The notes under the pieces: model-generated | What the model saw: the letters and a program-made list of their open reading frames with translations, nothing else | What the model was told of the DNA's origin: nothing | The model's database searches: none | Position numbers and translations under genes: made by a program | Shown here: one piece after another, positions 27,461 to 47,196 of the stretch | Numbering within the stretch: position 1 is the stretch's first letter | How the letters are laid out: every line of letters starts with the position of its first letter | IMG/VR virus record: IMGVR_UViG_3300028534_000017 | Coordinates: 72,284 to 130,160 of that record | DNA: 57,877 nt | Source: a virus | Strand: one strand, 5' to 3'

Positions 27461-29497
27461 ATGGAATTTACCGAAATAAAAACGTATGATATAATTGAAG
27501 AATCCTTAATAAATGGCCAATTATTATGTGAAGTAGAAACCGATGTTAATTCGGTTTCTTACTCAGTAGATTCAAGTTATAATAATTATTTTTCCGTTCA
27601 GGAAAATAAAGTTTATTTGACTGGAGATGGTAAGGAAGCTATTAATAAAGATTACCCTGAAGATATATCTAAAGAATTACAGTATCTTAACTTTACTATA
27701 ATAGCAACTAATTTAGAAACGAATGCTAGTATTTCTCAAGATATATCTATTAAAATTCAAAGAATTATAGATAATCCACCTTATGTACTAAATCATTTCG
27801 AACATAATTTATATACTCATAATTTATATCCAAATATGTTGGTATCAAAAATAGATTTAGTATATAATACATATTGTGAAATTCTAGGGATTAACGCTTC
27901 TTATTTTGATATCGATTCTATACCAAGCGCAGGAACCGATAATATAATAATTAAATTAAATAATAATGGTATTAATCAATACTCTAATTTAGATTTCGAT
28001 ACTTTAAATCAAGATGATATTGAATTAATAGATAATAGAAGAGTTTATAAACACGAATTAATTTTAAATTTTACAGACGCAACCAATGGAAAAACTTTAG
28101 TTTATTCTATTTGGACAAGATTCGTGGAAGGTGATCAATATCAGAATTTGCCTACTAAAAATAATTTAGAAATTCAAGCCGAATTATTAGCTACTAAAAT
28201 ATCCGATATAGCTACTAAAAATGACGAAACGATTAATGAATATTCTTTTGATATTTCAAATTTAAAAAGAAAAGTTTCTGTAATCGGAAGTCAATTAAAT
28301 TTAAATAGAACTCAAATTAACGAAATTCATGCATTATTACAAGAAACTATTAATGAAACCAAAGAAACTTTTGTTTTTACAGATGATAAAATAAAGGTAG
28401 TTGTTAAATCTCAAATGGATATGTACAATGTTATTTATAAAACTATTTCAGATTATTTAAATACTAATTTAAATTCGGATTTAGAAAATAAAGCAAATAT
28501 GTTTTGGATGGTTAATGAAAATGAAAATTATGGTTTAACTAATCATATTTCTTCAAAAGGTTTTAGTGAATATTTAATGGCTAGAACAGATTTAGAAATT
28601 CAAAGAAGATTTGAAAACTATACTGATACTATAAATCAAATGTTTGTTAATTTTAGAACCTTAATTAATTCAAATATTATTTCTCCAATTACTACAAAAA
28701 CCACGGAATTAGCTTCTGGTATTAATCAAGCATTTATAGATATGGTAAATATTGGTAATGTGGCAGAAGAAGCTAGAACTAGAGTACTTAATGCAGATGA
28801 CAATATAAAATATTTAGATACTCGGATTCAGTTTATGGAAGGTTTTTCATTGGAAGATTGGGGTACTGATAATACTTGGAAATTTTTTGGAAGTTCTTTA
28901 CAATATACGGGCATAGACGTAATTCGTTGGGGAAGCACAGAAGTTGAATTATATCATAGTAATAGAATTACGTTAAACACCGATGATGGTTCTGCTTATT
29001 GGGATGGCGATACTTTAACTTTCGACAACGCTGAAAATGTTACCGTAGATGCTGGAACTTTTACTGGTACTGCTACTACGGCTAAGTATGCCGATTTAGC
29101 CGAGTACTATAAAAAAGAAATTAAGGAAGAATATCTTTATGAACCAGGAACTATTTTATATTTTAATAGATCTAAAGATACAGAAGATTTCGAAGTTACC
29201 GAAAATGCAAAAGGAAATATTTATTGTGGGGTAGTAACTACTAGTCCAGGATTTGTACTTAATAGCGCTTTCGAAGATAATCAAGAATACGTTAATATCG
29301 CATTGAATGGTAGAGTACCAGTTAAATGCAAAGGGATTATTAAAAAAGGAATGTATTTATACCCAAGTACTAATAATCCAAATATCGCGGAAGGTACTTA
29401 TCAATTTAAAGGAACACCTGATTTAATCGGAGTAGCTTTAGAAAATAGTAATATAAGTTCTTTAGAAAATTTTAAAATTCTATGTAAAGTTAAATAG
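27461..29497 (+). CDS. Tail fibre with a C-terminal auto-cleaving chaperone-like (peptidase G2/IMC-type) domain
   Basis: GTATTAKYADLAEYY...YEPGT...GVVTTSPG...IALNGRVPVK...IGVALE. Confidence 0.75.
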   Translation: MEFTEIKTYDIIEESLINGQLLCEVETDVNSVSYSVDSSYNNYFSVQENKVYLTGDGKEAINKDYPEDISKELQYLNFTIIATNLETNASISQDISIKIQRIIDNPPYVLNHFEHNLYTHNLYPNMLVSKIDLVYNTYCEILGINASYFDIDSIPSAGTDNIIIKLNNNGINQYSNLDFDTLNQDDIELIDNRRVYKHELILNFTDATNGKTLVYSIWTRFVEGDQYQNLPTKNNLEIQAELLATKISDIATKNDETINEYSFDISNLKRKVSVIGSQLNLNRTQINEIHALLQETINETKETFVFTDDKIKVVVKSQMDMYNVIYKTISDYLNTNLNSDLENKANMFWMVNENENYGLTNHISSKGFSEYLMARTDLEIQRRFENYTDTINQMFVNFRTLINSNIISPITTKTTELASGINQAFIDMVNIGNVAEEARTRVLNADDNIKYLDTRIQFMEGFSLEDWGTDNTWKFFGSSLQYTGIDVIRWGSTEVELYHSNRITLNTDDGSAYWDGDTLTFDNAENVTVDAGTFTGTATTAKYADLAEYYKKEIKEEYLYEPGTILYFNRSKDTEDFEVTENAKGNIYCGVVTTSPGFVLNSAFEDNQEYVNIALNGRVPVKCKGIIKKGMYLYPSTNNPNIAEGTYQFKGTPDLIGVALENSNISSLENFKILCKVK

Positions 29498-29531: not shown

Positions 29532-31352
29532 ATGGAAAATCAAACCATAAATATAGAAGAAATTCCACAAATACAAAATATAAATAAAAGTGTATTAAAT
29601 ATTCTGGATGATTTAAAAATTGTTTCTAATTATCTAGAACCAGAAATACTATTAAATATTTTAGGAATTTTGGATATATTTTACGATGGGGATATATCGG
29701 AAATTAAATTAGATAATAAAAAAAGTAGTCTTGAAAATAAAGAATTATTAGAACATTTAAGTTCTTTAAATAATAATTTATATACGGTACTAGAAAATAT
29801 TCTAGTTATTATTCAAGCTGTTAAAGCGGACTTTGGTGAAATTCCAAAAGTTCTTAGTTTAATTATTAAAGAAATTAGTATTTATATTTTTCAATATAAA
29901 TATGAATTAACATATGATCAGGCTAAAAATAAAATAGAATACAAAGATCATTACGAAAATCTTTTAAAAGAATCTGGTTTGGATTCTTTATACGAAGAGT
30001 TAAATGAATATTTTTATAATGAATTGGATAAAAAACAATTGCATAAAGAAAATATAAAAGCCAAATACGAACATTATTTTCACGATGACACAAATATCCC
30101 AACCAATCACGATAATGATGATTCTTTCCATATAGTATTTCAAATTAATAAAAATTGTAATTTCAAATGTACATATTGTTATGAAGGTCTTGATAAAGTT
30201 ACAGAAATTCTCAAAGAAAAAGATATTGAAGAGTTCGTCAATGGAATAAAAGCATTTCAAAAAGACTTAGAAAAACGTGGAGAAGTTTCTAAATTATCTT
30301 TTAGTATATTGGGTGGAGAACCAACAATAGTCGATCAAAAAATAACTCACAAATTAACAAAGGCTTTATCAGACGAATTAGATTTAAAATATATTATTTT
30401 AATTACTAATAATTATTCGGCTGAAAGAACTATTAAATTCTTTCATCCAGAATTTCCAAAAGAAAAAATAAAGATTCAGGTTTCTTATGATGGTGGAATT
30501 ATTCAAGAAGATTATAGAAAGGATTCTAAAAAAGCCGGAACCAAAGAAAGTATCACTAAAGAAATTTATAAATTACTTGGTAAAGATTATAAAGTAACTT
30601 TAAAAGCCACGTTACCAATAGAAGCAATTAAAGACGTTCCTGAAGCTGTTATGGATTATGTTTCATTTGAAGAAGATATAAATAAGAATAATCATAATCC
30701 TGGAAATTTTTCATATTATCCAACTTTTGACACCACTTCTATTTTAATGTATAAATTACGTCAAAGCATATTATATGGAGATGAATCAGGTAAGAAAAAA
30801 CTATTCGAAGATATAGATAAAACTTTCAGATTTTTATTAAAATTTGAATTAGACCGATTTTTAAATGGTAAAAAAGCTTTTACTAGATGGTTTAGAGAAA
30901 TGAGTTATTCTGCTAATAATTCTGCGTGTTCTGCGGGAATGAAATTATTTGGATTAGATCAAGATGGAAATACTAGATATTGTCATAGAGTTGAATTTGG
31001 CGAAGAACATTCTAAATCTAAATTTCCGTATCCAGAAGAACAATTAAAATCATTAAATTATGGAAATATTAAAAATTTAGAATTTATTGAAAATTTTCAC
31101 AGAACTAAAAAAATAATAGAAAAAGAACATGTTGGTGAAAAAGTAGATAACTTTAGTTATTGTTCTTCTTGTAAAACATTATCATGTGTTAAATGTCCTA
31201 TGATTAGTATTACTCCAGATAGAAGTATGGATACTAATACTTCTATGGATTTATACACAGATATGTATTCTCATGGTCTAACTTTAGCTTGTGAAATCAA
31301 TAATTATATAAGTAAATATTTATATATATTTGATAAAATAATCAATAAATAA
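29532..31352 (+). CDS. Radical SAM/SPASM peptide-protein maturase with a ~200-aa N-terminal extension
   Basis: CNFKCTYC, LGGEP, VSYDG; SPASM-like Cx12Gx4C ... CSSCKTLSCVKC ... LAC. Confidence 0.88.
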   Translation: MENQTINIEEIPQIQNINKSVLNILDDLKIVSNYLEPEILLNILGILDIFYDGDISEIKLDNKKSSLENKELLEHLSSLNNNLYTVLENILVIIQAVKADFGEIPKVLSLIIKEISIYIFQYKYELTYDQAKNKIEYKDHYENLLKESGLDSLYEELNEYFYNELDKKQLHKENIKAKYEHYFHDDTNIPTNHDNDDSFHIVFQINKNCNFKCTYCYEGLDKVTEILKEKDIEEFVNGIKAFQKDLEKRGEVSKLSFSILGGEPTIVDQKITHKLTKALSDELDLKYIILITNNYSAERTIKFFHPEFPKEKIKIQVSYDGGIIQEDYRKDSKKAGTKESITKEIYKLLGKDYKVTLKATLPIEAIKDVPEAVMDYVSFEEDINKNNHNPGNFSYYPTFDTTSILMYKLRQSILYGDESGKKKLFEDIDKTFRFLLKFELDRFLNGKKAFTRWFREMSYSANNSACSAGMKLFGLDQDGNTRYCHRVEFGEEHSKSKFPYPEEQLKSLNYGNIKNLEFIENFHRTKKIIEKEHVGEKVDNFSYCSSCKTLSCVKCPMISITPDRSMDTNTSMDLYTDMYSHGLTLACEINNYISKYLYIFDKIINK

Positions 31353-31370
31353 AAATTAAAAAGGAATTAT

Positions 31371-31946
31371 ATGGGTACCACATCAACTACAATGACCTCC
31401 TGTAAATTTAATTCGGTTTCCTTCGAAACTGGAAATCCTGCCTATACTACTCGATGCGATGCATTGATTAGTAAGAGTCCTCCTCCAGGTACAAATGTTG
31501 ATCAGGGCGCCACCTGCCCAGATTATATGGCAACATGTAGTACAAATTTTTCAACTACTATCGAAAATAAATTTGCTCCGACATCACCAAATAATTTGGT
31601 AATTGATGACCATCATTTTAGAGATTTATATCTTTTGGCGAATGATATAGCAGATAATAGAAATTTTTTAGATCCTGCGGCAATGCCAAGTAATATAACT
31701 GCTGGAAATATAGTTAATCATAACGATTACAATGGTTTAAAATTATGGGCTGATAGTATTGCTGGAGCAAATTTAAACGTCACTTATCGTTCAAGAGGAA
31801 ATCTTATCGATAATGCTAGTCTTTTAACTTTAAAGGCAAAATATAAAGAAATTGCTGTATTGTGTAATACAAATGGACACTGTGCATGCGATAGTATTTG
31901 TACATGTAATACTGTTTGTACTTGCAATTGTGTTACTAATTATTAA
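31371..31946 (+). CDS. Cys-rich fibre-like protein, candidate rSAM substrate
   Basis: C-terminus CNTNGHCACDSICTCNTVCTCNCVTNY; GNIVNHNDYNGLK and GNLIDNASLLTLK repeats. Confidence 0.7.
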   Translation: MGTTSTTMTSCKFNSVSFETGNPAYTTRCDALISKSPPPGTNVDQGATCPDYMATCSTNFSTTIENKFAPTSPNNLVIDDHHFRDLYLLANDIADNRNFLDPAAMPSNITAGNIVNHNDYNGLKLWADSIAGANLNVTYRSRGNLIDNASLLTLKAKYKEIAVLCNTNGHCACDSICTCNTVCTCNCVTNY

Positions 31947-31959
31947 TAAAGGAAATTAT

Positions 31960-32586
31960 ATGCAAATAGCGTTAATAAATAAATTAAATAATAAATTCGT
32001 AATTACCGAAATTTCTGAATTTGGTGGTTTAGATTTAGAAATTTTTTCATTATGGGCATCTATAGATAATAATACTAAATTTCATTATAAAGCATTATTA
32101 AATTTATATAATCATGTTTATATAAATGAATCTAGCGTTTTAAATCAAAAAATTACAACAGGTAGTTTTATTTTTGATCCAAATGATCTTAGGAATATTA
32201 AAGCGCCGGAAACGGAAGTTCATGAGCCTTCTGATTTAGAATTAAAAAAAATAGAATTTTTAAATAAATTAGATAAAGATTTTTCTATGAATATTAATAA
32301 AACTAATTTCTTAAAATATATTCATTATATCAATCTTTTCAATTATTTTGCATCTATTGGAATTTTTATTACTAAAGAAAATAAAGAAGATAGATATATC
32401 GAAATATTGGAATTAGATGATGAAACGGCTATAGAAAAATTAGAGTTATATCTTAATCTTCAGGATGAAATAGACGAATTCTTAAATTTAAATACGAATT
32501 TAATAAATTTAAAAGAAGAAATTGAATATGCGGATGAAGAAGAATTTGATAAAATTTTAGAAGAAAATCAAACTACTTCATTATAA
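31960..32586 (+). CDS. Hypothetical protein, possible fibre chaperone
   Basis: ORF 31852..32586; start moved to MQIAL at 31960 after AAGGA; helical acidic C-terminus. Confidence 0.55.
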   Translation: MQIALINKLNNKFVITEISEFGGLDLEIFSLWASIDNNTKFHYKALLNLYNHVYINESSVLNQKITTGSFIFDPNDLRNIKAPETEVHEPSDLELKKIEFLNKLDKDFSMNINKTNFLKYIHYINLFNYFASIGIFITKENKEDRYIEILELDDETAIEKLELYLNLQDEIDEFLNLNTNLINLKEEIEYADEEEFDKILEENQTTSL

Positions 32587-32597
32587 AAATTATAAAA

Positions 32598-33443
32598 ATG
32601 AAAAATATATCATTATTACAAGAAAACAGATTCGGTCCCCGTAAAAGAGGATCGAATACCATTCCTGCCAAAATTTTTAGAAGATATGGTTATACTTTAA
32701 TAAATGAACCAAACGAAGATAAATTTATTAATTTTTATAGAATGCCTTCTAATAAAATATTCAACTCGAATTTATTATTTACTTATTCCAAATCAAAAAT
32801 AGAATTAGTAAAAGATAATCAATTTTCTGAGAAACTAAATTTTATATATTTAAAAAATAAAAATAAAATATATTCGAATGGTTTTTATTATAGTAAATAT
32901 TTTGATATGTTATATTATCCAAGATATTTTTTCGAAATAACTATTGATAGTCAACTATCAATAGTTAACTATCAATCAAAATTCTATAAATTTGGTATTT
33001 ATAATCGTCCAGAATGTAACGACGAAAATATTTTATTAAAATATATCGTAGAAAACAATATTGAAAAGGAAAATGTTTTAATATTTGGTAAATCTATAGC
33101 TGGGTTTGATAACGAAACTAATCAAAATCTTTTTTTTAAAAGTATAGAAACTTATTTGATAAATAATGTTGATTATGACTGCGTTTCTAATACCTTATTA
33201 GAGGCATTGTACTTAAATAAAAAAATATTGTTAATGAATCCATTTTCAGTTGCCAATGACAATAAAGCTTTTTTAGAAGTTATAAATTATTTTGGAAAAG
33301 ATATATTTTTCCAAAAATTAAATAAATTGAATGATTATTGTTGGAAAAATTTAAATGAAGATAATTTTAAAAAAAGATCCGAAAAGATACAAATACTTTT
33401 TAAAAAATCTAAAACGTTTAAAGATTTTTTATTAAATTTTTAA
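32598..33443 (+). CDS. Glycosyltransferase-like protein (GT-B)
   Basis: FFKSIETYL...DCVSNTLLEALYLNKKI resembles the GT4-type acidic-x7-E donor motif. Confidence 0.5.
   Translation: MKNISLLQENRFGPRKRGSNTIPAKIFRRYGYTLINEPNEDKFINFYRMPSNKIFNSNLLFTYSKSKIELVKDNQFSEKLNFIYLKNKNKIYSNGFYYSKYFDMLYYPRYFFEITIDSQLSIVNYQSKFYKFGIYNRPECNDENILLKYIVENNIEKENVLIFGKSIAGFDNETNQNLFFKSIETYLINNVDYDCVSNTLLEALYLNKKILLMNPFSVANDNKAFLEVINYFGKDIFFQKLNKLNDYCWKNLNEDNFKKRSEKIQILFKKSKTFKDFLLNF
32939..32976. repeat. ATAGTTAACTAT array inside a CDS
   Basis: AACTATTGATAGTCAACTATCAATAGTTAACTATCAAT, 14-bp phase. Confidence 0.85.
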
Positions 33444-33479
33444 AATATAAATATAAATATAAATTAAATAAGGCTAAAA

Positions 33480-34268
33480 ATGTTAAAAACTTCAAACGAA
33501 TTAAGTTTAATTATTTATCCTAGAAAAATTTCAGGAATAATTTTTTATGCTTTAGAGTACTATATTTATTTATTAGAAAATAATATGAAAATAGATATTA
33601 TTTTTATAATTGATTCTAAAAATAAAAATTTAAAAAATAAGCTGATTGAATTAATAATAGAAAAATATTCTAAATATTACGTGGATTTATTAGTAAAAAA
33701 TATTATTTTTACTAAAGATAGAATTCATAGTAAAAATATTTTAATTCTTGATTATAGTACCTTTGATTTATTAAATAAAAAAATATTTTATAAAAAGTGC
33801 TTTTATAATTACACGAATTCTATCGAATCTTTAAATTTATCTTTTGATAAATTCTGCAATTTAAAAAATATTATTCCTTTTGGTAATAAATATTTCTCCT
33901 TAGTTTCTAATAATTTTCCATTGTTAATTAATTTTAAAATGTTTAAAAAATTATCAAATTTTAAATCCGAAGTATTTATAGAAAATAAAAAATTAATAAG
34001 TACTCATAGACAAACTGTTACCAATTTTCATAAGAATTTCAATACCTTAATTTTATTTAGGGTTGATTTTGATAGAGCAAATAGATTAATACCAGAATCA
34101 AAATTCTATAATAAAAAGATTATTATTTTTAATCATTTAAGAATTAATAAAAAAATTAAAGATAGTATTGATTATTTAATGAATATTTATTCTTTATTTT
34201 TGGACTATCCAAATATATACGAATCTGGTTTTTACGAATTTTTAAAAGAACATACAAAGGAAGAATAA
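33480..34268 (+). CDS. Glycosyltransferase-like protein (GT-B)
   Basis: SGIIFYALEY; FDRANRLIPESKFYNKKI; paralogue of 35097. Confidence 0.5.
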   Translation: MLKTSNELSLIIYPRKISGIIFYALEYYIYLLENNMKIDIIFIIDSKNKNLKNKLIELIIEKYSKYYVDLLVKNIIFTKDRIHSKNILILDYSTFDLLNKKIFYKKCFYNYTNSIESLNLSFDKFCNLKNIIPFGNKYFSLVSNNFPLLINFKMFKKLSNFKSEVFIENKKLISTHRQTVTNFHKNFNTLILFRVDFDRANRLIPESKFYNKKIIIFNHLRINKKIKDSIDYLMNIYSLFLDYPNIYESGFYEFLKEHTKEE

Positions 34269-35080
34269 TGCAATCTAAACTATCAAAACTTGTTTTTAAT
34301 CATATAAATATAAATTTTACCCTTACCGAATCATGCAACTTTAAATGTTCTTATTGTATTCAAGGGTTTAATCAAGATTCACCCATTGTTCTTAATATTA
34401 ATTATTTTGAATTAATATTAAAAAAATTAAAAAAAGAAATTATAAAAAATAAAATAACTTCGCTGGATATTACATTAATGGGTGGAGAATTAAGTACCCA
34501 AATAAATTTTTTAAATTATTTTGAATTAATAAACAAAGTATTTGAAAATTCTTCTATAGAAGTTCATGTTAATTTTTTAACTAATTTTTCTGGAAATTTT
34601 AATTTTTTTGAAAAATTAAATAATATGTTTAATAAAATATCAATTACATTTGATATAAGTATTCATCCAGAGTATTTTACAAAAATAAATCTTTCGAAAA
34701 TTATAAAATTTATAAATATTATAGATAATAAAAATGATATTATAATAAATTATTTATATTCTAATTATATTTTTATTCCAGATTTTGAATTAGAATTAGA
34801 TAAATTAAAACTATTAAATAAAAAAATTATTATAAATAAAACATTAATTAGAAAAGCTGGTTATATAGATAAAAAAAGAACTATTGGTAGATACTGTAAT
34901 GCTTTATATTATCTTGTATTTCCAGATGGAAAAATAATTGATCAATGTAGACAAAAAGAATTTAATTTTATCAATTTTAAAGTTATTCCAAAAATTATAG
35001 AATGTTATAGAGAATGTCCATGTCCATTTTTGGAAAAAGAATTTGTCCAAATTAATAAAAACCAAATAATTAATAATTAA
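34268..35080 (+). CDS. Short radical SAM protein, family A
   Basis: CNFKCSYC, MGGELS, TNFSGN, C-terminal C..C..CxxxCPC. Confidence 0.88.
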   Translation: MQSKLSKLVFNHININFTLTESCNFKCSYCIQGFNQDSPIVLNINYFELILKKLKKEIIKNKITSLDITLMGGELSTQINFLNYFELINKVFENSSIEVHVNFLTNFSGNFNFFEKLNNMFNKISITFDISIHPEYFTKINLSKIIKFINIIDNKNDIIINYLYSNYIFIPDFELELDKLKLLNKKIIINKTLIRKAGYIDKKRTIGRYCNALYYLVFPDGKIIDQCRQKEFNFINFKVIPKIIECYRECPCPFLEKEFVQINKNQIINN

Positions 35081-35096
35081 TAATTAAAGAGAAATT

Positions 35097-35951
35097 ATGA
35101 ATAAAATAACATTAACCTATTGTCCAAGCAATATTGAAAAAAATAGAATTTGTGGTCATACTTTCGAAGTGATGGATTATTTTCTATTATTATACGATTT
35201 AAATTATTCGGTAAATATATTAATACAAGAAAAAATAAATAAACAAGTAATATTCGATGCTTGGGAAGATAAATACGATTTACCAAAAGATTATAAAAAA
35301 TTTATTAATTTTAAACCAAACACAAAAATAATTTTAGCAGATACTTTAATAATTACTAGTGGTTTAAACGAAAATTATTTGAATAAAGTTAAGGTAATAT
35401 CTAAAAAACTAATATTATTTCGTTGTAACCCAAGTATTAATTATTCAAATATAATTGATAATAAAAAGGTATTTTTATTAAATGATATGCGGGTTTATAA
35501 AGACAATATTGGGGATCATTATATAAAAAAAATATACTTTAAAAGATTTAAAAAACTTAATAAAATAGATAAAAAAAATAATAAAACTTTAATTTATATT
35601 AATTCTAATTTAAGAAAATTAGAAACTATTAAAGAAGATAAAAATATGTTGTATGTTTCCGGCACTGATCATAACTTTGGGTCATTCGTATTACAAGCTC
35701 CTATAAAAAAATTATTTGATAAATTTGATACTTTTTTATACACTAGAACTACTAGACAATTCGACTGTAGTCCAAGATTAATAACCGAATGTTATTATTA
35801 TAATAAAAAAATAGAATTTGATTTTAATTTTAAAGAATATTGTGGGCCAGATTATGGGGATACTGGATTATATTGGAGAATGTATGATATTAATACAGAT
35901 TTCGACAAAGTATTTCTTACCGAAGAAGATGAAGTACTTAATTATATTTAA
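35097..35951 (+). CDS. Glycosyltransferase-like protein (GT-B)
   Basis: CGHTFEVMDY; FDCSPRLITECYYYNKKI. Confidence 0.5.
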   Translation: MNKITLTYCPSNIEKNRICGHTFEVMDYFLLLYDLNYSVNILIQEKINKQVIFDAWEDKYDLPKDYKKFINFKPNTKIILADTLIITSGLNENYLNKVKVISKKLILFRCNPSINYSNIIDNKKVFLLNDMRVYKDNIGDHYIKKIYFKRFKKLNKIDKKNNKTLIYINSNLRKLETIKEDKNMLYVSGTDHNFGSFVLQAPIKKLFDKFDTFLYTRTTRQFDCSPRLITECYYYNKKIEFDFNFKEYCGPDYGDTGLYWRMYDINTDFDKVFLTEEDEVLNYI

Positions 35952-35960
35952 AGGGATACA

Positions 35961-36794
35961 ATGAAATTATTTAACAAAATAGAATTATTTTCCGAATTAA
36001 CTTTTTTTTGTAATTGGAAATGTTCTTATTGTTGTCAAAATGTTGATCATAATGATACAAACTTAATTTCGGCAAAAACTTATAAATTATTATTATATAA
36101 ATTTTTATCTGAAGTTAAAAAAGAAAATATTCCAAATATCGAAATTACTTTAATGGGTGGGGAATTAAGTACAAATAAAGAATTTTTAAAACATTTTGAA
36201 ATCACTTTTGAATTATTACATAAATTTAATATTAATGCGGACTCGATATTAATAGTTTTTAGTACTAACTTTTCTGGAAATTTTGATTTTTTTAATGAAC
36301 TAATGGATATAAACAATAATTATCCAACTATTAATTTCTGTATGAATATATCAATACATGAGGAATATTATCAACAAGAAGAAAAAATATTAAAATTTAT
36401 AGAAAAAGTAAATAAAATAAAAAATATGATAATAGATATTCAATTTTTAGAAAGTAAAAATCCAAAATTTATAAATTGTTTTAATTTATTTAAAAAACAT
36501 TTTGACAAATTAAATAAAAAAATAAATATAATAAGTACCCCTTTAATTCAAAAAGGTTTAGCGAAAGAAAATAATTGTGGTATTGATATTTCTAAAAAAA
36601 TTAATTCAAGGCTATGTGACGTATTAACTTATTCTATAATGAATAATAAAATAATAGATAGATGCAAAAATAAAGAATATAATTTTGGAAATTTTAAAAT
36701 TGATAAAACTTTATATAAATGTGATAAAATTTGCCCATGTTCATACATGCCGGACGAATTTAATCAACTACCAATTATATCGGATAAAGAATAA
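35961..36794 (+). CDS. Short radical SAM protein, family A
   Basis: CNWKCSYC, MGGELS, TNFSGN, CDKICPC. Confidence 0.88.
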   Translation: MKLFNKIELFSELTFFCNWKCSYCCQNVDHNDTNLISAKTYKLLLYKFLSEVKKENIPNIEITLMGGELSTNKEFLKHFEITFELLHKFNINADSILIVFSTNFSGNFDFFNELMDINNNYPTINFCMNISIHEEYYQQEEKILKFIEKVNKIKNMIIDIQFLESKNPKFINCFNLFKKHFDKLNKKINIISTPLIQKGLAKENNCGIDISKKINSRLCDVLTYSIMNNKIIDRCKNKEYNFGNFKIDKTLYKCDKICPCSYMPDEFNQLPIISDKE

Positions 36795-36803
36795 GGAAAT
36801 TTA

Positions 36804-37685
36804 ATGAATTACAATATACCAGATAAAGAAAATCGAGAGTTTGGAACCTTCGTCGAATTTAGTATAAATTTAACTACTAAATGCAATTGGAATTGTTCTT
36901 ATTGTAACCAAAATTCAAATCATAAAAACGATGATAAATTATCTTTTGGAATTTATAAATTATTAATAAAAAAAATATTAAAAGAATTTCATAAATCTGG
37001 TATTAAATACTGTTCCTTATCTTTACTTGGTGGTGAACTAAGCATAGATATGGACTATATTAATTATTTTAAATTTTTATTACAGGAAGTAAAACAATAC
37101 GATATTATTTTAGATATGGATTTAATTACAAATTTTTCGGGAAATAAAGATTTTTTTGAGGAATTTCTAAAATTATCTAAAATATATAATAAACATCATT
37201 TTATTATAACATGTACTCTACATGAAGAGTACTATCAGAATAAGGAATCTCTTCTTAAAATAATAACAAAAGCAAATCAGTTAAACTTAGAAAATTATAA
37301 TGTTAATATCGATTTTAAGTATTTAATTTCGGATTCTCCAAAATCAATAAAATTACAAAAACTATTAAAAGAAAAAGATATTAAAAGAAAAATATTAAAA
37401 AATAAATTTATTAATTTACAAACTGATTATTTAATAGACCCTGTTTTTAAAAATTATAATTATGGTAAAAAATTAAAAACTAGAGAATATTTTTTATGCG
37501 ATGCTTTATTTTATAGATTTTCGAATAATAAAATAGTAGATATATGTAGAAAGAAAGAATACTCTTTTATAAATTTTCGAATTGATAAAACTCTTATTAA
37601 TTGTAATCGAGACTGTCCCTGTTCGCATTTACCATCTACGTTTAATACTAGAATTAAACAGAATAAAATTACAAAGGAAATATAA
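36804..37685 (+). CDS. Short radical SAM protein, family A
   Basis: CNWNCSYC, LGGELS, TNFSGN, CNRDCPC. Confidence 0.88.
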   Translation: MNYNIPDKENREFGTFVEFSINLTTKCNWNCSYCNQNSNHKNDDKLSFGIYKLLIKKILKEFHKSGIKYCSLSLLGGELSIDMDYINYFKFLLQEVKQYDIILDMDLITNFSGNKDFFEEFLKLSKIYNKHHFIITCTLHEEYYQNKESLLKIITKANQLNLENYNVNIDFKYLISDSPKSIKLQKLLKEKDIKRKILKNKFINLQTDYLIDPVFKNYNYGKKLKTREYFLCDALFYRFSNNKIVDICRKKEYSFINFRIDKTLINCNRDCPCSHLPSTFNTRIKQNKITKEI

Positions 37686-38299
37686 TGAAGGCACGGAATA
37701 CCCAAAAACTAGAAAAACAGGAATCAAAAAATATTTTAAAAGATTTAAATAAAAATATGAAAATTGATCAAATAAGATTTTTAAAATTAGTAAAAAAATA
37801 TGAAAATATAGAATTTAATAATTTTTTAAAAGCTGGTATTAATTATTGGTCAAAGATTATAAACGGCAAAATTTATATGAGTGAAGAATATTTTTTAAAA
37901 TATTATTATGTTATGTCTAAAGACGAAAAATTGGAGAATTATTCTTATGAAAAATTTAAGGAAGATTTTTTAAAATTTTGTAATGAGTTACCATACGTAT
38001 TAAATTATAAATTTGAAAATGATTTATTAATTGGGGATTTAAGTAACTTCGGTATTAAAAATATAAATGATTATAAAAATAAAATTATTACTAAAAAACC
38101 AAATATAATAAAAGATATTAATACCGATCGTGTACTTTATAATTTAAGTATTTTTGACGAATGTTTTTATAATTGGATCGATGACGATAATCCAACTTTA
38201 ATATGTCCAACATGTGTTTTTAGAATCAATAAAAATAATTTATTAAATTATAATATTGATTTTTCAAGTACTTATAAAATCAATACGGATAATTTATGA
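37685..38299 (+). CDS. Hypothetical protein, weakly kinase-like
   Basis: IFDECFYNWI resembles a DxxxxN loop; CPTC motif. Confidence 0.35.
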   Translation: MKARNTQKLEKQESKNILKDLNKNMKIDQIRFLKLVKKYENIEFNNFLKAGINYWSKIINGKIYMSEEYFLKYYYVMSKDEKLENYSYEKFKEDFLKFCNELPYVLNYKFENDLLIGDLSNFGIKNINDYKNKIITKKPNIIKDINTDRVLYNLSIFDECFYNWIDDDNPTLICPTCVFRINKNNLLNYNIDFSSTYKINTDNL

Positions 38300-39060
38300 A
38301 ACTAGATAGTTTGGATATAAATATATTTTTAAATGATTCTTGTAATTGGAATTGTTCTTATTGCGGACAAAACCAACATTCAAATAAAAAAATTAATAAA
38401 GAAATTCTTTATAAAAATTTAAAAAAGTTTAAAAAAGAATTAAATAATTTTTTAAAAATTAACAAAATATCTAATATAAATATTATATTCCAAGGTGGGG
38501 AATTAAGTACGGATATAAAAACTTTAACGCGTATAAAAGAAATAAAAAATATGTTTGAAGATATTCCAAATTTAAATTATATATTCCTTACTAACTTTTC
38601 TGGAAATTTAAAATACTTTGATAAATTATTAACTATTTTAGATATTAAGGTAATTGCTACTTTACATCAGGAATATATAAATGAAAAATTATTAATAGAA
38701 TTTATTACTAAAGCAGAGCTCTTAAATAAAAAGTACCCCAATAAAATAATTTTTAATTTATTATATAGCACTGATCCAAATTTTAGAAAATTATTAAAAT
38801 TATTAAATAAATATAATATTTTTGACAACGACTTACTAAAAATAGAAAAAGATTTTTTAATAAAAAAAGGAAAAAATTTTAACGGTAAATATGGATTACC
38901 ATTGGTAAAAGAAAAAGAAATTTATATAAATAAAAAGGATATTGTTCTAAATTATCATTTTGAAAAAGATAGTATTATAGATATAATAAATAATACTATA
39001 ATGAATTATAATAATTTTAATATAAATATTACTAATAAAATAATGCGGATGGAAAAATAA
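38296..39060 (+). CDS. Short radical SAM protein, family A, lacking auxiliary Cys
   Basis: CNWNCSYC, QGGELS, TNFSGN; no C-terminal cysteines. Confidence 0.85.
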   Translation: MKLDSLDINIFLNDSCNWNCSYCGQNQHSNKKINKEILYKNLKKFKKELNNFLKINKISNINIIFQGGELSTDIKTLTRIKEIKNMFEDIPNLNYIFLTNFSGNLKYFDKLLTILDIKVIATLHQEYINEKLLIEFITKAELLNKKYPNKIIFNLLYSTDPNFRKLLKLLNKYNIFDNDLLKIEKDFLIKKGKNFNGKYGLPLVKEKEIYINKKDIVLNYHFEKDSIIDIINNTIMNYNNFNINITNKIMRMEK

Positions 39061-39061
39061 A

Positions 39062-39694
39062 ATGCGAAAAAATTACGAAATAAATTTAACATATACTTGT
39101 AATTGGAACTGTTCGTACTGCTGTGTAGATACTCATAATAAAAATATATCTTTTACTAAAGTAAAAGAATTATTAAAAATTATAGAACCAAATTCGACTG
39201 TTTCTTTAAGTGGTGGAGAAGTTGGAACTTTACCAAAATATAAAATAGAATATGTAATTAAACAATTAATAATAAAAAATTGCGATATTTCTTTAAATAC
39301 AAATGGTTTATTTCTTAATAAATATCCAGAATTAATAAAATACTTTGATGAAATATTATATCATTGTTCTGAAAATTTAGATAATAGTATAACTTTAAAT
39401 AAAAAATTATTGGAACTTTATAATAAAAATATTTTAAAATTATTACTAGTTATAGATAATAATGGTTTAAAAAAATTAAATACTTTCGATTTTAAATATA
39501 CCTATGATATTATACCCGCCACAAATAGTACTGGAAAAAATATGAGTAAATTGGATAAAAAACTATATCCCAAATTATTAAAATATAAAAAATATATGAT
39601 AAAAGAAAGTTACAAAAAATTAATAAAAAATACGCGATACGATGATATCGTATATCTAGATGAAAATACTTTAACCGAAAACAATAGAGGATAA
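39062..39694 (+). CDS. Minimal radical SAM protein
   Basis: CNWNCSYC, LSGGE, NTNG; 210 aa. Confidence 0.85.
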   Translation: MRKNYEINLTYTCNWNCSYCCVDTHNKNISFTKVKELLKIIEPNSTVSLSGGEVGTLPKYKIEYVIKQLIIKNCDISLNTNGLFLNKYPELIKYFDEILYHCSENLDNSITLNKKLLELYNKNILKLLLVIDNNGLKKLNTFDFKYTYDIIPATNSTGKNMSKLDKKLYPKLLKYKKYMIKESYKKLIKNTRYDDIVYLDENTLTENNRG

Positions 39695-39696
39695 TT

Positions 39697-40611
39697 ATGG
39701 AAGAAATTTATAAAAATACACTTAGAGTAGAAATAGAATTAAATAATGTCTGTAACTTAAACTGCCCATTATGTTCTAGAAATACGATATATACTAAGGA
39801 TGATTTTAAACAGAAAATTCACGTAGATTCTGATAAATTAATATCATTATTAAATCAATTTCCAAATTTAAAATACGTTACTTTAGCTGGAGAATATTCG
39901 GAACCAACAACATACCCCGATTTATTTAAAGTACTTGATTATTTACATAACCGAGATATAGAAGTATATTTATTTATAAATGCTAGTACAAAAAACGATA
40001 CTTATTATAAAATACTTGCTAAAAAATTTCTTGGTACGAAAAGTACTATTTATTTTAGCTTATTTGGAACAACTAATAAATTACATACTAAATATAGAAA
40101 AGGTGGTAATTTAGAAGATACTCTTAGAAGAGCTAAGATAATAAAAAGTATCTGTCCAAATAATTTTACTATTATATGGATTTTATTTAAATATAATATT
40201 GAAGATTATTTACAAAATAAAAATTTTTTAAAAAAATATTGTAATTCGGAAGAAATTTTTTGGTCAATTCCATTCGCAGAAAGATATAATTTAAGCGATA
40301 GTTTGGAAAAAGGTATATGTTTACCAGAAGAAGAAAGAAACATTTATAATAAATTAGATAAAAATCCAGATTATAAAAATATGACTTGTAAGTCTATAAA
40401 AAATAATTTTGCGTATATTGATAATAATTTAAATATTTGGCCATGTTCATTATCTAAACATAATAAATGTTCATTTGAAGAAATTAAAAAAGGTTCTAAA
40501 TCCTTCTGCTTTGAATGTTTCCCAAAAAATTTAGATATAATGTACGATTATAAAATACATACTTTGTGCGAAAGCGAAACTATGGAATCGAATCATAAAT
40601 TAAGGAAATAA
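39697..40611 (+). CDS. Radical SAM/Twitch protein, family B
   Basis: CNLNCPLC, LAGEYSEPT, CK...IWPC...CFEC. Confidence 0.88.
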   Translation: MEEIYKNTLRVEIELNNVCNLNCPLCSRNTIYTKDDFKQKIHVDSDKLISLLNQFPNLKYVTLAGEYSEPTTYPDLFKVLDYLHNRDIEVYLFINASTKNDTYYKILAKKFLGTKSTIYFSLFGTTNKLHTKYRKGGNLEDTLRRAKIIKSICPNNFTIIWILFKYNIEDYLQNKNFLKKYCNSEEIFWSIPFAERYNLSDSLEKGICLPEEERNIYNKLDKNPDYKNMTCKSIKNNFAYIDNNLNIWPCSLSKHNKCSFEEIKKGSKSFCFECFPKNLDIMYDYKIHTLCESETMESNHKLRK

Positions 40612-40613
40612 AA

Positions 40614-41606
40614 ATGATATTAACGAATCACGATATCCAGGAATTTGAAATTGATTTAACCGGTATTTGTAATTTACAATGCCCAATATGTACTAGAAAT
40701 TACACACACGCTTCGCATTTATTAAAGAAAAATATTAGACCTCTTTCGGAAATAATTTGGCAATTAGACCAATTTCCAAATTTAAATAGAATTATGTTAG
40801 CCGGAGCCATTTCGGAACCGACTGGATATCCGGAATTTTTGGATTTAATTGGATATCTTAATTCTAGAAATATATTTATTGATTTATTTACTAATGGTAG
40901 TAATATTCCAAATTCGGAATATAAAAAGAATAAAAATTTTTGGGAAGATTTGGGAAAATTATTTTCGGAAGGTAATCCAAATAACATTTGTACTTTTACT
41001 ATTTGTGGGAGTACAAACGCACTTCATTCAAAATATAGAAAAGGTAGTTCGTTGGGTGAAATTTTAAATAATATAAAGTATTTTAAAAAATATTCTTTTA
41101 ATAATGATTGTGTACAATTTATAGAATTTGAATATAATACTAATGATATAAATTCTAAAAATTTAGATTATATAAAAAATATGGTAACTGAATGGTACAC
41201 TGTTCAATCAGAAGGCCGTAGAAGATTATTAGATTTTAAAAAGAATGATTTTAAAAAGGAAGGTATTTGGCCAAAAGAAGAAATAGAAAAAAAATATAAA
41301 AAAGTATTTGACCGATTTTTTAAAATAAAAGTAAATCCAAAAAAACTAAATTGTAAAGCTATAAGATATAAAAAATTACATATTGATCAATTTGGAACTA
41401 TTTTTCCATGTTATATGTTAATGGAATTTCCAGAAAGTAAGGATAATTATTTCTATAATTTAGAAGAATTTAAAAAAGCAGTTGAAAAGAATAAGGTGAT
41501 TTTTAATTTTAAAAAAATACATTCTTGTGGTTTTGACGAATGTAAATTTTGTGATCAAAGTGTAGAAAAGTTAATACAATACCAAGGATTGGATTTCATA
41601 TGTTAA
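40614..41606 (+). CDS. Radical SAM/Twitch protein, family B
   Basis: CNLQCPIC, LAGAISEPT, CKA...GTIFPC...CKFC. Confidence 0.88.
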   Translation: MILTNHDIQEFEIDLTGICNLQCPICTRNYTHASHLLKKNIRPLSEIIWQLDQFPNLNRIMLAGAISEPTGYPEFLDLIGYLNSRNIFIDLFTNGSNIPNSEYKKNKNFWEDLGKLFSEGNPNNICTFTICGSTNALHSKYRKGSSLGEILNNIKYFKKYSFNNDCVQFIEFEYNTNDINSKNLDYIKNMVTEWYTVQSEGRRRLLDFKKNDFKKEGIWPKEEIEKKYKKVFDRFFKIKVNPKKLNCKAIRYKKLHIDQFGTIFPCYMLMEFPESKDNYFYNLEEFKKAVEKNKVIFNFKKIHSCGFDECKFCDQSVEKLIQYQGLDFIC

Positions 41607-42514
41607 TTAAAGATATAGAATTTGAATTAAGTAACTATTGTAATGCCGATTGTCCATTATGTGCCAGAAATTATTTAAATAAAGATATTTTAAATTCTAA
41701 ATTTAGACCAATATCGGAATTACTTCTTCAATTGGATAATATAATAAAAAATAATTCGGTAAAATGGATTAGATTGGTTGGGGCCGTATCGGAACCTACT
41801 TTACATCCAAAATTTTTAAAATTAATAACAGAATTAAAAAATAGAAATTTAAATATAGAAATATGTACCAATGGGGATACAAGAACTCCAGATTTCTGGA
41901 AATCTTTAAATAAACTTTTAGATAAAAATGATAAAGTTTATTTTACTATATGTGGAAGTACTCAAGAAGTACATGAATTATATAGAAAAAAGACAAACCT
42001 AAAAAATATTTTAAATAATATTAAATATTTCCAATCTGGTAATACCAAAAATAAAATTGATTATGCGCAATGTATACAATTCGATTATAATTATCAAGAT
42101 TTAAATTCGGAACGGTTTAAAAAAATGATTTCATTTATTTCTAATATTTATATGACTAAAACTTATTTAAAAATGAATTCTAAATTATATAAAAATTATC
42201 AAGATATTATAGAAAATAAATTAAAACCAATACAGAATATACAATATCAAAAAATAAATAAAATAGTTTCTAATTTTAAACTAAGTACTAAAAAAATCGC
42301 CTGTAAAGCTAAAGAGGATAATTCTATTTTTATAGATATAAATGGTAATATTAATCCGTGTTATTTATTTTATGAACAGGCTAAATTAAATAATATAAAT
42401 ATTAAAAACTGGTCATATAATAAAATAGAAAATTTTGAATACGAAGCCTGCAAATTTTGTGAAATTTGCACCCGAAAAATTTTAGAAAAAAAAGACATGG
42501 AATATATAATTTAA
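41600..42514 (+). CDS. Radical SAM/Twitch protein, family B
   Basis: CNADCPLC, LVGAVSEPT, CKA...GNINPC...CKFC. Confidence 0.88.
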   Translation: MLIKDIEFELSNYCNADCPLCARNYLNKDILNSKFRPISELLLQLDNIIKNNSVKWIRLVGAVSEPTLHPKFLKLITELKNRNLNIEICTNGDTRTPDFWKSLNKLLDKNDKVYFTICGSTQEVHELYRKKTNLKNILNNIKYFQSGNTKNKIDYAQCIQFDYNYQDLNSERFKKMISFISNIYMTKTYLKMNSKLYKNYQDIIENKLKPIQNIQYQKINKIVSNFKLSTKKIACKAKEDNSIFIDINGNINPCYLFYEQAKLNNINIKNWSYNKIENFEYEACKFCEICTRKILEKKDMEYII

Positions 42515-42523
42515 AGGAAAATA

Positions 42524-43603
42524 ATGATAAATACAAGTACTCAATATGGAAAACTTAAAAAGGTAATTGTTGGAAATGAATTAAATTTTAATAAGCGGTT
42601 ATTTGATATAACTATGAAAAATTTTTATAAAGAAAATTTAGGCCAACAGTTATACGATTCACCAATAACCGAATATTCTATAAATTATAAAATACTTCAA
42701 GAACGTATAGAAGATTTAGATACTTTATCAAGTACTTTAATTAATTTAGGAATTGATGTTTCTCGACCAACTAAAGTAGATAAAATGCATCGTATAGAAA
42801 CTCCTTATTTTAAAAGTGAAGGATCAAGTGCTAGCAATGTGAGGGATTTAACTTTTATTTATAATAATACTATTATTGAAACTCCAGTATTTATTAGAAA
42901 TAGATATTTCGAAAATTTACAATTATATTCAATACTAAATAAAAATTTTTTTGAAACTCCAGAACGTTTTAACCCTAAGTGGATAAAATCTCCAAATAAT
43001 TTTTTAACGGAATCTCGAATTGATTTAGATAATTGGGATTCTCCAAGAAATTTTGAAAATCTTAATCCTATTATAGATACATATGATATGGCTATAGATG
43101 CTGCACAATTTATTAAAATAAACGATAAAGAATGCTTTGTAAACATTAGTACTTATAATCATTATTTAGGTTTTCTTTGGGTAAAATCTAATTTTCCAAA
43201 CATTACTTTTTATCCACTTTATCAATTAATTGATAATCATCTTGATGGAGCTTTTAATATTTTATCGGATGGGGTATTTTTGGTTAATCCAGCTTATAGA
43301 AATTTAAAAGAAAAATTACCTAAAAAATTTAAAAATTGGAAATATTTAATTCCAAAAGAAACTATTAGAAAATATCCAACTAACGTTACGGATATAGATA
43401 AATTATTTGCTAGCGAACGAGGAATGGATATAAACGTATTAAGTATTTCTCCAAAACAAGTTATTGTTTCTAAAGATGCTACCGAAACTATAAAAATACT
43501 CGAAAAAAATAATTTTGAAGCTATTCCAATTCAATTAAGACATTCTGAAATATTTGCTGGAGGAATACACTGTAGTACTTTGGATATAGAAAGAGATTCA
43601 TAA
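42524..43603 (+). CDS. Amidinotransferase (glycine/inosamine-phosphate amidinotransferase family)
   Basis: LKKVIVG, VRD, IDAA, HLDG, GGIHCST: Asp-His-Cys triad intact. Confidence 0.88.
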   Translation: MINTSTQYGKLKKVIVGNELNFNKRLFDITMKNFYKENLGQQLYDSPITEYSINYKILQERIEDLDTLSSTLINLGIDVSRPTKVDKMHRIETPYFKSEGSSASNVRDLTFIYNNTIIETPVFIRNRYFENLQLYSILNKNFFETPERFNPKWIKSPNNFLTESRIDLDNWDSPRNFENLNPIIDTYDMAIDAAQFIKINDKECFVNISTYNHYLGFLWVKSNFPNITFYPLYQLIDNHLDGAFNILSDGVFLVNPAYRNLKEKLPKKFKNWKYLIPKETIRKYPTNVTDIDKLFASERGMDINVLSISPKQVIVSKDATETIKILEKNNFEAIPIQLRHSEIFAGGIHCSTLDIERDS

Positions 43604-44334
43604 TGTTTTTAGAAAACGAAGAAATTAAAGAAATCGAAATAGTACAATATCAGGAACATTTAGATAATATTTTTTATAAAAAATATATTCTTAATGAATT
43701 TAAAATTAATTATAATATATCTAAAAAAGATATATTATTATTTAATAATAGATTCTTTTATTATATTATCAAGGATAATTATAAAATTATAAATATTGAT
43801 ATTTATAAAAAAGTATTTACTTATTACGATACCTATAATTATAAAGATGATTTAATTACAAATTATTGTAATATCGTGGATAAAAATTATAAAGATAAAA
43901 TAAATAATATTTTTCCAAGTATAATTGAATTTATAAGTACCAGTAAATTATATAAATTTAGTCATTTTAAAAATAATAATTTATATTTTCATAAAGTGTC
44001 TGGAAAAATAATTAAATATTTAATTACTAAAAAAGATTTTTACTATTTAAAAAAATTTTACGATGATTTAAAAAATAAACATATTGAACTCAATCCATTT
44101 AGTAGTTTACTTACAAATAATTTAGTTAAAACAAAAGATCATAAAATATATATAATAGATTTAAAACAAATTGGTTTTCTAAATTATCAAATAAATATGC
44201 CATTTTTTATAATTTTAAAAAATGAAAAAACTAATACTGGTTATATATATACCGAGGAAAAAAATAAAAATTATAATTTTAATAATATTAAAAAAGAACA
44301 TTCGTTTGAAAAAATTAAAATTATAATTTATTAA
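43603..44334 (+). CDS. Hypothetical protein, weakly kinase-like
   Basis: NNLV...KIYIIDL resembles kinase subdomains VIb-VII. Confidence 0.35.
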   Translation: MFLENEEIKEIEIVQYQEHLDNIFYKKYILNEFKINYNISKKDILLFNNRFFYYIIKDNYKIINIDIYKKVFTYYDTYNYKDDLITNYCNIVDKNYKDKINNIFPSIIEFISTSKLYKFSHFKNNNLYFHKVSGKIIKYLITKKDFYYLKKFYDDLKNKHIELNPFSSLLTNNLVKTKDHKIYIIDLKQIGFLNYQINMPFFIILKNEKTNTGYIYTEEKNKNYNFNNIKKEHSFEKIKIIIY

Positions 44335-44350
44335 ACTAAAAAGGAAATTT

Positions 44351-45220: not shown

Positions 45221-45221
45221 T

Positions 45222-46524: not shown

Positions 46525-46526
46525 AT

Positions 46527-46820: not shown

Positions 46821-46829
46821 AAGAAATTA

Positions 46830-46885
46830 AACGACAGGAAAATAGCTATGGAAATCAATCCATAGCTATTTTTGCTCCTGTCGTT
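46830..46885. terminator. Bidirectional terminator with CCTGTC on both arms
   Basis: AACGACAGGA-AAATAGCTATGGA...TCCATAGCTATTTT-TGC-TCCTGTCGTT between convergent genes. Confidence 0.8.
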
Positions 46886-47157: not shown

Positions 47158-47196
47158 TTTTTACCTTTATTTAAAATATTTTTGAATATATTTTTG

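Follow-up and report, generated by a model that had tools for sequence, protein, structure and literature searches.

What does a radical S-adenosylmethionine (SAM) enzyme of the SPASM kind act on when the gene directly downstream of its own encodes a whole protein that ends in a ladder of cysteines? This question is raised by a locus in a stretch of viral DNA of 57,877 nucleotides (hereafter, the window; positions 72,284 to 130,160 of the 130-kb IMG/VR record IMGVR_UViG_3300028534_000017, which CheckV estimates to be 46% complete), where a gene for a SPASM enzyme is followed, 5′ to 3′, by a gene for a Cys-tailed protein and a gene for an acidic protein (Table 1). The Cys-tailed gene starts 18 nt past the stop codon of the enzyme gene, each of the three genes has an AAGGA ribosome-binding site 6–8 nt 5′ of its ATG, and the 281-kb contig of a relative shows the same gene order as the window. 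The new observation is that this order, SPASM enzyme, Cys-repeat protein and acidic protein of about 200 amino acids (aa), recurs in four distant lineages. That the enzyme modifies the Cys ladder of its neighbour is, in our estimate, the most likely reading, at about even odds, and the evidence on both sides is weighed below.

The 191-aa Cys-tailed protein has the C-terminus LCNTNGHCACDSICTCNTVCTCNCVTNY, in which eight Cys fall within residues 165–191 with a 6-residue period, and four further Cys are located at positions 11, 29, 49 and 56; a preliminary description of this DNA, made from the sequence alone, had placed all of them correctly. Under a binomial model with the Cys frequency of the open reading frames (ORFs) of the window (1.04%), at least eight Cys in 27 residues have a probability of 2.5e-10, and in every other window ORF the count per 27 residues is five at most. 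A word-indexed search for relatives yielded three, and an exhaustive phmmer search over 1.84 billion representatives added 12 more. In an alignment of 16 sequences, which reaches down to 27% identity, C11, C49, C56, W126, C165, C177, C179, C183, C185, C187 and Y191 show no variation, C173 and N186 show hardly any, and position 180 is always occupied by Asn or Asp.

The repeating unit of this family is C-x-C-(N/D/H)-x-x, with an invariant Tyr at the end. Because the Asn of a hexad lies three residues after the first Cys of its own hexad and three residues before the first Cys of the next one, the NxxC motifs to which the preliminary description drew attention and the CxxN motifs form one and the same ladder. 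Of the three (N/D)xxC sites listed in that description, all of them present in the window protein (NGHC, DSIC and NTVC), the family keeps a single one, N180..C183; N168, D174 and C171 are not conserved, C171 being often absent, and the register that is conserved is Cys-x-x-Asn/Asp. Among 18 phage sequences, Cys-x-x-[NDE] is found at 83 of the 136 tail Cys, compared with 44 ± 4.7 after shuffling of the non-Cys residues, whereas [NDE]-x-x-Cys is not enriched (33 observed vs 44 expected); because the sequences are related, the enrichment describes the register and carries no P value. The conserved candidate pairs are C177/N180, C183/N186 and C187/N190, to which the window protein adds C165/N168 and C171/D174. 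At one of the more distant loci discussed below (L045), the unit is an octad that combines a C-x-x-Q with a C-x-x-N.

Upstream of the tail, AlphaFold predicts a core of five helices with a predicted local distance difference test score (pLDDT) of about 80; for the N-terminal 51 residues and for the tail the score is below 50, and the tail is predicted to be flexible or unstructured. The GNxI/V...LK strings that had been taken as signs of a phage fibre domain do exist, at G112 and G143, but the model places them in loops that precede helices of the core, and because neither the fold nor any fibre family gave a match, the fibre-domain reading is not supported. The protein matches no family of Pfam, PHROG or NCBIfam (the last searched with the whole protein at E ≤ 0.1). 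Four tails compared with NCBIfam at E ≤ 10 likewise matched nothing, including SCIFF and other curated Cys-rich precursors of peptides that are made on the ribosome and modified after translation (RiPPs) as well as the CXXX-repeat targets (TIGR04114/TIGR04117). There was no tblastn match to the protein among 50,697 phage records, no blastn match to the gene pair, and no match of the protein profile to PDB sequences; the model found no significant counterpart in the Foldseek search of the PDB, in BFVD, in the wide VIA search (best Z 7.3, helical-bundle noise) or in the ESM Atlas (TM score at most 0.49). Longer fused forms of the protein (402–2000 aa) were searched for and none was found, which is weak evidence.

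The enzyme encoded upstream carries the radical SAM cluster motif C209xxxC213xxC216, which in its eight aligned orthologues is embedded in an invariant CNFKCxYC. The seven C-terminal Cys are invariant in the same orthologues, with the pattern Cx12GX4C...CX2CX4CX2C...C, which differs slightly in spacing from the SPASM pattern CX9-15GX4C...CX2CX5CX3C...C. Both the CxxxCxxC motif and the seven SPASM Cys are kept in homologues of 20–25% identity from Bdellovibrionota and from the Campylobacter phage CP220, so that the seven Cys of the SPASM-like domain noted from the window alone recur in three groups of homologues. The PF04055 match (25.7 bits) falls under the 29.5-bit cut-off, and the SPASM hidden Markov models (PF13186/TIGR04085) gave no match to the enzyme. 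In the AlphaFold model (mean pLDDT 72.7), an all-helical N-terminal domain (aa 1–183) is followed by the radical SAM core, and the model aligns with the SPASM enzymes anSME and CteB across about 440 columns; the top Foldseek match is anSMEcpe 4k36 (E 5e-8), followed by precursor-bound ChlB, CteB, SkfB and SuiB. All of these are SPASM/twitch-type enzymes that act on peptides or proteins. The best NCBIfam models all remained about ten-fold under their cut-offs: QhpD (TIGR03906; 44 bits against 453, E 1.2e-11, with only the N-terminal half aligned), a prokaryotic viperin-family model, the nif11-like peptide maturase, TIGR04463 (the CrpC family; 38.8 bits against 525, so that the enzyme is not a member) and PapB (NF047865; 37.8 bits against 340, aligned over aa 201–549); the CXXX-repeat maturase model reached 18 bits against 350. 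Judged by these alignments and by the predicted structure, the enzyme is of the peptide- or protein-modifying SPASM kind and belongs to no named family. Its own family comprises 19 clusters at 41% identity or more, after which the next match drops to 27%, and is as restricted in range as the family of the Cys-tailed protein.

The N-terminal extension of the enzyme, previously put at some 200 residues, is about 195 aa long and is modelled with helices only (pLDDT mostly 70–90, no strands in aa 1–183). Its sequence varies among the orthologues, and it is missing from the bacterial and other phage homologues. Scans and a model of the whole protein detected no match of the extension to Pfam, NCBIfam, PqqD or the RiPP recognition element (RRE), which is a winged helix with a three-stranded sheet. 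The helical piece beside the enzyme differs among the loci: it is a fused part of 195 aa in the vent phages, a separate 192-aa ORF between the enzyme and putative substrate genes in L035 (L035:2168-2746) and a 72-aa upstream ORF in Bdellovibrionota (L018:4783-5001). The extension showed no detectable sequence similarity to either of the two separate ORFs (hhalign probability below 1% for both). At L010, a contig of 2.3 kb, the enzyme ORF (L010:133-1275, named 'sulfatase maturation enzyme AslB' by JGI) has 380 aa and is devoid of CxxxCxxC; it may be truncated or broken at the 5′ side.

How tightly is this enzyme tied to the Cys-tailed protein? The first lineage consists of jumbo phages from vents, with 11 distinct loci (the window, L002, L004, L006, L007, L010, L011, L015, L016, L017 and L019) and with L043, which may be a twelfth. 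In these loci, an enzyme of 570–690 aa is encoded directly 5′ of the Cys-tailed gene and the acidic protein is encoded 3′; where the spacing is unambiguous, the gap between the first two genes is −4 to +18 nt, and stop/start overlap is frequent. Because the vent phages are related to one another, the pairing in this lineage alone could be inherited synteny. The second lineage is bacterial. On the chromosome of Peredibacter sp. HCB2-198, a 389-aa SPASM homologue (one of the 27% matches) is followed by a 199-aa protein that ends in CICHADCYENNVCACHNNCDCHY and is related to the phage family (hhalign probability 78%, E 1.8e-5), then by a homologue of the acidic protein (37% identity) and by homologues of most genes of the island that lies downstream in the window. 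The Cys-rich protein was found in 8 of 401 sampled Bdellovibrionota genomes, and an enzyme homologue with 24–26% identity lies directly 5′ of it in Peredibacter and seven further Bdellovibrionota genomes. The seven loci that were inspected share the order 71–72-aa ORF, SPASM enzyme, Cys-rich protein and acidic protein, and in the three for which the junction was checked (L018, L025 and L028) the last 11 nt of the enzyme gene are shared with the Cys-rich gene. The tails in this group, ...DCICNSDCNCNAVCSCHNNCGCHY, consist of four clean C-x-C-x-x-x hexads.

The third lineage is represented by low-GC phage loci, namely L035 (24.8 kb, 26% GC, binned with an Erysipelotrichaceae metagenome-assembled genome), L046 and L047. 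In L035, two proteins with strong matches to tail-fibre PHROGs (E down to 3.6e-40) precede radical SAM genes and a SPASM homologue (hhalign probability 99.2%), after which come the helical ORF of 192 aa and a Cys-rich homologue of 244 aa that carries CxC repeats at its N- as well as its C-terminal end and whose helical core is homologous to that of the window protein (hhalign probability 97%, E 7.5e-11); the set ends with an ORF of the Peptidase_S74 family and a 403-aa protein that has the C-terminus of the acidic protein. In the fourth lineage, L045 (the 65-kb contig Ga0209567_10000024, 31% GC), a single SPASM homologue (hhalign probability 99.3%) is followed by three tandem Cys-rich paralogues of 307, 241 and 169 aa (L045:1822-4071), whose helical domains match that of the window protein (hhalign probability 93.8%). 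In the tails, the unit CTCQCNYx is repeated in long arrays, and the last 150 residues hold as many as 36 Cys; CTCNCNY forms the C-terminus of two of the paralogues, and the acidic protein is again encoded 3′.

Across the four lineages, none of the homologues with readable upstream DNA is without the enzyme, and so the homologues without a maturase that the preliminary description had named as counter-evidence did not turn up; the acidic protein is encoded 3′ of the Cys-rich gene in every lineage. Because the enzymes of different lineages are only about 24–27% identical, the conserved order is good evidence of a functional link between the enzyme, the Cys-repeat protein and the acidic protein. 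It does not prove that the first two are enzyme and substrate, although we infer this relation from it. The acidic protein gave no usable match in the ESM Atlas. Homologues of it occur in cultured Campylobacter group II phages (CP220 gp015; L034:6701-7399); CP220 gp015 is encoded directly 3′ of tail assembly and baseplate hub genes, with radical SAM and sugar dehydrogenase genes next to it and no Cys-tailed ORF nearby.

What reaction might link the two proteins? In Methanococcus voltae, the SPASM enzyme CrpC installs ranthionine links within CAVD, PCAGD and CAGM of full-length CrpA, in which C-X-X-Q/D repeats have been noted (PMC13692751). The likeness to the window locus is considerable: a SPASM enzyme adjoins a full-length Cys-rich protein (CrpA has more than 100 aa) with Cys in C-terminal C-x-x-Q/D repeats, the experimentally demonstrated links run from Cys to the residue at +3, which is the spacing of the window tail register, and an N-terminal enzyme domain is present, which in CrpC helps to engage the substrate. 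However, the window protein combines a helical domain with a short hexad tail, whereas CrpA has ten 17-residue repeats; the hosts are phages and Bdellovibrionota instead of an archaeon, no RRE is detected, there is an acidic third protein, and some lineages have a split S74 domain. QhpD, the best-scoring NCBIfam model, is also a SPASM enzyme that puts several Cys-to-Asp/Glu thioethers into a protein subunit (quinohemoprotein amine dehydrogenase gamma, QhpC), but its substrate is unrelated to the protein considered here, and no qhp or dehydrogenase genes were recognised among the window neighbours. With QhpD/QhpC and CrpA, radical SAM thioethers on whole proteins are an established chemistry. 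The systems PapB/PapA (freyrasin) and NxxcB/NxxcA resemble the window locus in that short motifs recur in which a Cys thioether is made to Asp or Asn, at the beta or gamma carbon; they differ in that their substrates are short leader-plus-core peptides with C-X3-D or NxxC motifs, in contrast to C-x-x-N/D within CxC hexads of a 191-aa protein. The best structural match, the SPASM enzyme anSME, takes a whole protein as substrate and modifies a Cys in it, but its target motif C/S-x-P/A-x-R is absent from the window tail and no sulfatase gene is present. Phage Cys-repeat proteins of 200–250 aa encoded beside SPASM enzymes are also known from the CXXX-repeat system (TIGR04114/TIGR04115; PF27846, common in phages), clusters of which are among the weak ESM Atlas neighbours of the Cys-tailed protein; the repeat of the present family, however, is CxCxxx or CxCxCNYx, not Cxxx, and the target models do not match it.

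On the basis of these precedents, we propose that the 606-aa enzyme, putatively with three clusters, would act on the 191-aa protein, a folded helical domain with a flexible C-x-C-(N/D)-x-x tail that ends in Tyr. As in CrpC/CrpA, PapB and QhpD, a hydrogen would be abstracted at position +3 relative to the first Cys of a hexad, and the carbon thus activated would be joined to the sulfur of that Cys. The acceptors would be Asn or Asp at 180, 186 and 190 and, in the window phage, also at 168 and 174, so that three to five small thioether rings of the ranthionine type could result. The second Cys of each pair would be left free for metal binding, disulfides or interchain links. If the tail is modified at all, thioether rings from Cys to Asn/Asp at +3 are the most probable chemistry. 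A predicted complex of the enzyme, SAM, three 4Fe-4S clusters and the Cys-tailed protein received a score of 0.02, which speaks neither for nor against this mechanism.

Several observations count against modification of the tail by its neighbour. The putative acceptors vary more than the Cys do, a conserved partner is missing for the second Cys of each pair, and in the bacterial homologues two of the four +3 positions are occupied by His, which is not known as a thioether acceptor. More radical SAM genes accompany the set in lineages 1 to 3, so that a different enzyme, or none, may act on the tail, and because nine others follow it in the window, adjacency alone is weaker evidence than it looked. 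The distant Campylobacter-phage homologues of the enzyme (21% identity) have no Cys-tailed neighbour, and no RRE-like recognition domain was detected in the enzyme.

The same His residues, which in the phage proteins are replaced by Asn, suit the metal-binding alternative that the preliminary description had offered. The Cys pairs, possibly those of three chains, could hold Zn, Fe, Cu or an Fe-S cluster without any covalent modification, while the enzyme acts on something else in the island, or the protein could serve as a cluster or electron carrier for the Fe-S enzymes of the island; we regard this as a serious but rather unlikely explanation, and one that does not exclude covalent modification. 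Runs of CxC are typical metal-thiolate ligands, and the HxH motifs of T4 gp37 hold iron. In line with such a site, two of four hexads in the bacterial tails read C-x-C-His, and the N-terminus of these homologues is rich in Cys and His (MACSGGHCSYHNTG..CSGH); in the phage family, three Cys of the N-terminal part never vary. The ten Fe-S enzymes of the island need clusters and a reductant, and the S74 connection described below implies that three tails meet at a trimer axis. What a metal site leaves unexplained is the translational coupling, in four lineages, to a SPASM enzyme of the peptide-modifying type. Moreover, arrays of at least nine repeats with conserved Gln/Asn at +3 are closer to the CrpA substrate than to a defined metal site, and no metallothionein, ferredoxin or other metal-binding family is matched.

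Where, then, would a modified tail be used? In phage fibres and spikes, Peptidase_S74 serves as a trimerisation chaperone that cleaves itself off. In Peredibacter, the tail is directly followed by SDKRLKKEIQYC and a stop codon, and the next ORF, offset by 1 nt, matches Peptidase_S74 from profile position 17 onward (27 bits, cut-off 22); when the two pieces are joined with an X at the break, the match rises to 40.3 bits from profile position 1 and begins at the Ser right after ...CDCHY. In L035, L046 and L047, the corresponding arrangement is ...CTCHSH, SDINLKKNVEYM and a stop codon, followed after a 2-nt gap by a 94-aa ORF that matches S74 positions 15–55 (38.9 bits). Thus, in two very distant lineages, S74 is split 12 residues past the Ser; the Cys-rich protein retains both the Ser and the Lys at +5, in the sequence S-D-x-x-L-K-K-x-[IV]-x-Y-x, and the rest is a separate ORF of 93–94 aa, which either overlaps the stop codon or begins 2 nt past it (L018:6640-7034; L035:3420-3767; L046; L047). 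That the Peredibacter frameshift is a sequencing error was considered and rejected, given the same split in L035, L046 and L047. We know of no description of a split S74. The presence of S74 implies trimerisation of these proteins and a mature chain that has the Cys ladder at its very C-terminus; this is precisely the point, the invariant Tyr, at which the window protein stops, as do most of the homologues that have no S74. About 11 kb past the start of the island, Peredibacter also encodes a 356-aa protein (L020:11212-12282) with an N-terminal type IV pilin N-methylation motif and a C-terminal full Peptidase_S74 (60.5 bits).

The set is connected with fibres by position as well. In the window, it is preceded by genes for a 972-aa, a 90-aa and a 678-aa protein, the last of which matches phrog_19602 and is syntenic in every vent-phage locus that reaches that far 5′. 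With the set following tail-fibre genes in two phage lineages and a split S74 following the tail in two lineages, the connection drawn in the preliminary description is borne out: it is real but indirect, and the protein may be located in the virion. Because the set ends a tail-fibre module and the relatives have S74 directly after the tail, the product would probably be a trimeric, fibre-associated part. The likeness to S74 fibres and spikes such as endosialidase and T5 pb1 lies in the position of the domain directly after the tail in the Peredibacter and L035-lineage homologues, with Ser and Lys at the usual positions; the differences are that S74 is split in these relatives, that it is found neither in the window protein nor anywhere in the 130-kb record (PF13884), and that the core is predicted to be helical, unlike the beta-rich fibres known to use S74, which also argues against a fibre role.

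A probably trimeric protein with dense, invariant Cys at its very end could also be held together by an ordinary interchain disulfide knot formed once it has left the cell, like the knot that terminates collagen III, in which case the enzyme would be unrelated. This we consider very improbable: a disulfide knot leaves unexplained why coupling to the enzyme is conserved, and reducing vent habitats and cytoplasmic assembly would not favour disulfides.

A virion role cannot be general, however, because Cys-tailed homologues reside in bacterial islands. The window island of about 19 kb (29532-48273) is syntenic gene for gene, with 25–47% identity, with an island of about 14 kb in Bdellovibrionota (L018 with L020, L031, L032 and L033); the synteny of the bacterial island extends to three further genomes, and its position between housekeeping genes (GlmS, UvrD, shikimate pathway) marks it as a chromosomal island, not a prophage. 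The amidinotransferase-like gene of the island, used as query, had no match in the L035 genome bin. Conservation of the entire block of radical SAM and unknown enzymes in bacterial chromosomes that have no phage genes there would fit a long-leader precursor, from which, in the manner of mycofactocin or pyrroloquinoline quinone (PQQ), the SPASM-modified tail is elaborated by the enzymes encoded downstream and then cleaved away to serve as a cofactor, metallophore or antibiotic, with no part in the virion. The C-terminal Tyr, which no member of the phage family lacks and which ends every bacterial homologue but one (with an added terminal Gly), has a precedent as a target, MftC acting on a C-terminal Tyr, and with the S74 cleavage Ser placed directly after the tail, a defined free C-terminus appears to matter. 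Nevertheless, we hold such a released product to be improbable. The helical domain of 115 residues, conserved in all lineages, is long for a leader, the number of repeats (from about 2.5 to at least nine) is unusual for a cofactor precursor, and an assembled trimer is what the S74 chaperone and the neighbouring tail-fibre genes suggest; furthermore, no protease or exporter was recognised in the island, a weak argument given that most of its genes have no family match.

Returning to modification of the tail within a structural protein, the locus may, on a speculative reading that we consider somewhat unlikely as a whole, encode an undescribed fibre part common to phages and predatory Bdellovibrionota: a small trimer with a Cys-ladder tail stapled by a dedicated SPASM enzyme, perhaps modified further by enzymes from the radical SAM and sugar-type island, and folded in some lineages with the help of a split S74. 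RiPP chemistry would then harden a structure of the virus particle or of the cell surface instead of making a peptide antibiotic. To our knowledge, radical SAM thioethers are known from short antibiotic-like peptides and, for whole proteins, only from QhpC and, since 2026, from CrpA. If the proposal is true, phages use this chemistry on a protein of the host-recognition module and predatory bacteria carry the same set; a new type of covalent stabilisation of virus parts would stand alongside the isopeptide chainmail of HK97, and enzymology would gain C-x-C-N-x-x as a compact new substrate motif. The pair also gives a handle on the ten-enzyme island 3′, and because the Peredibacter host appears to be a named, sequenced strain, experiments may be possible.

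Table 1. Positions in the window of the three-gene set, its parts and the neighbouring features
Feature	Position	Strand	Basis or remark
Tail-fibre-like protein, 678 aa, upstream	27461..29497	+	phrog_19602 'tail fiber protein', E 2.5e-10
Radical SAM/SPASM enzyme, 606 aa	29532..31352	+	PF04055, E 1.4e-5; phrog_1802, E 1.6e-19; closest fold anSMEcpe 4k36
N-terminal extension of the enzyme, aa 1–195, seven predicted helices	29532..30116	+	AlphaFold; sequence poorly conserved
Radical SAM cluster motif CNFKCTYC, C209/C213/C216	30156..30179	+	Invariant in enzyme alignments
SPASM-like region, Cys 466, 484, 544, 547, 552, 555 and 587	30927..31292	+	Alignments
Cys-tailed protein, 191 aa, proposed substrate	31371..31946	+	No Pfam, PHROG or NCBIfam match
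Helical core of the Cys-tailed protein, aa 52–167	31524..31871	+	AlphaFold, five helices
C-terminal tail, aa 165–191, C-x-C-(N/D)-x-x hexads, invariant terminal Tyr	31863..31943	+	Alignment; pLDDT below 50
Acidic protein, 208 aa, third conserved member of the set	31960..32586	+	phrog_25260, E 6.6e-11
Downstream island: eight more CxxxCxxC enzyme genes (+) with unknown and sugar-type genes	32598..48273	mixed	Ninth enzyme gene convergent, 47197-48273 (−)

Two minor features of the surroundings complete the picture. The 90-aa ORF between the 972-aa and 678-aa genes (27179-27451) matches no family, and its position and size (90–96 aa) are kept in all the related phage loci that reach there. The GC content falls from about 27% to 19–20% across positions 32000-46000 of the window. 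A foreign origin of this AT-rich stretch was considered and dropped because the GC content at third codon positions is uniformly low throughout all genes (0.07–0.21), so that the drop reflects amino-acid composition. The Cys-tailed gene is the GC-richest in this low-GC stretch (0.34).

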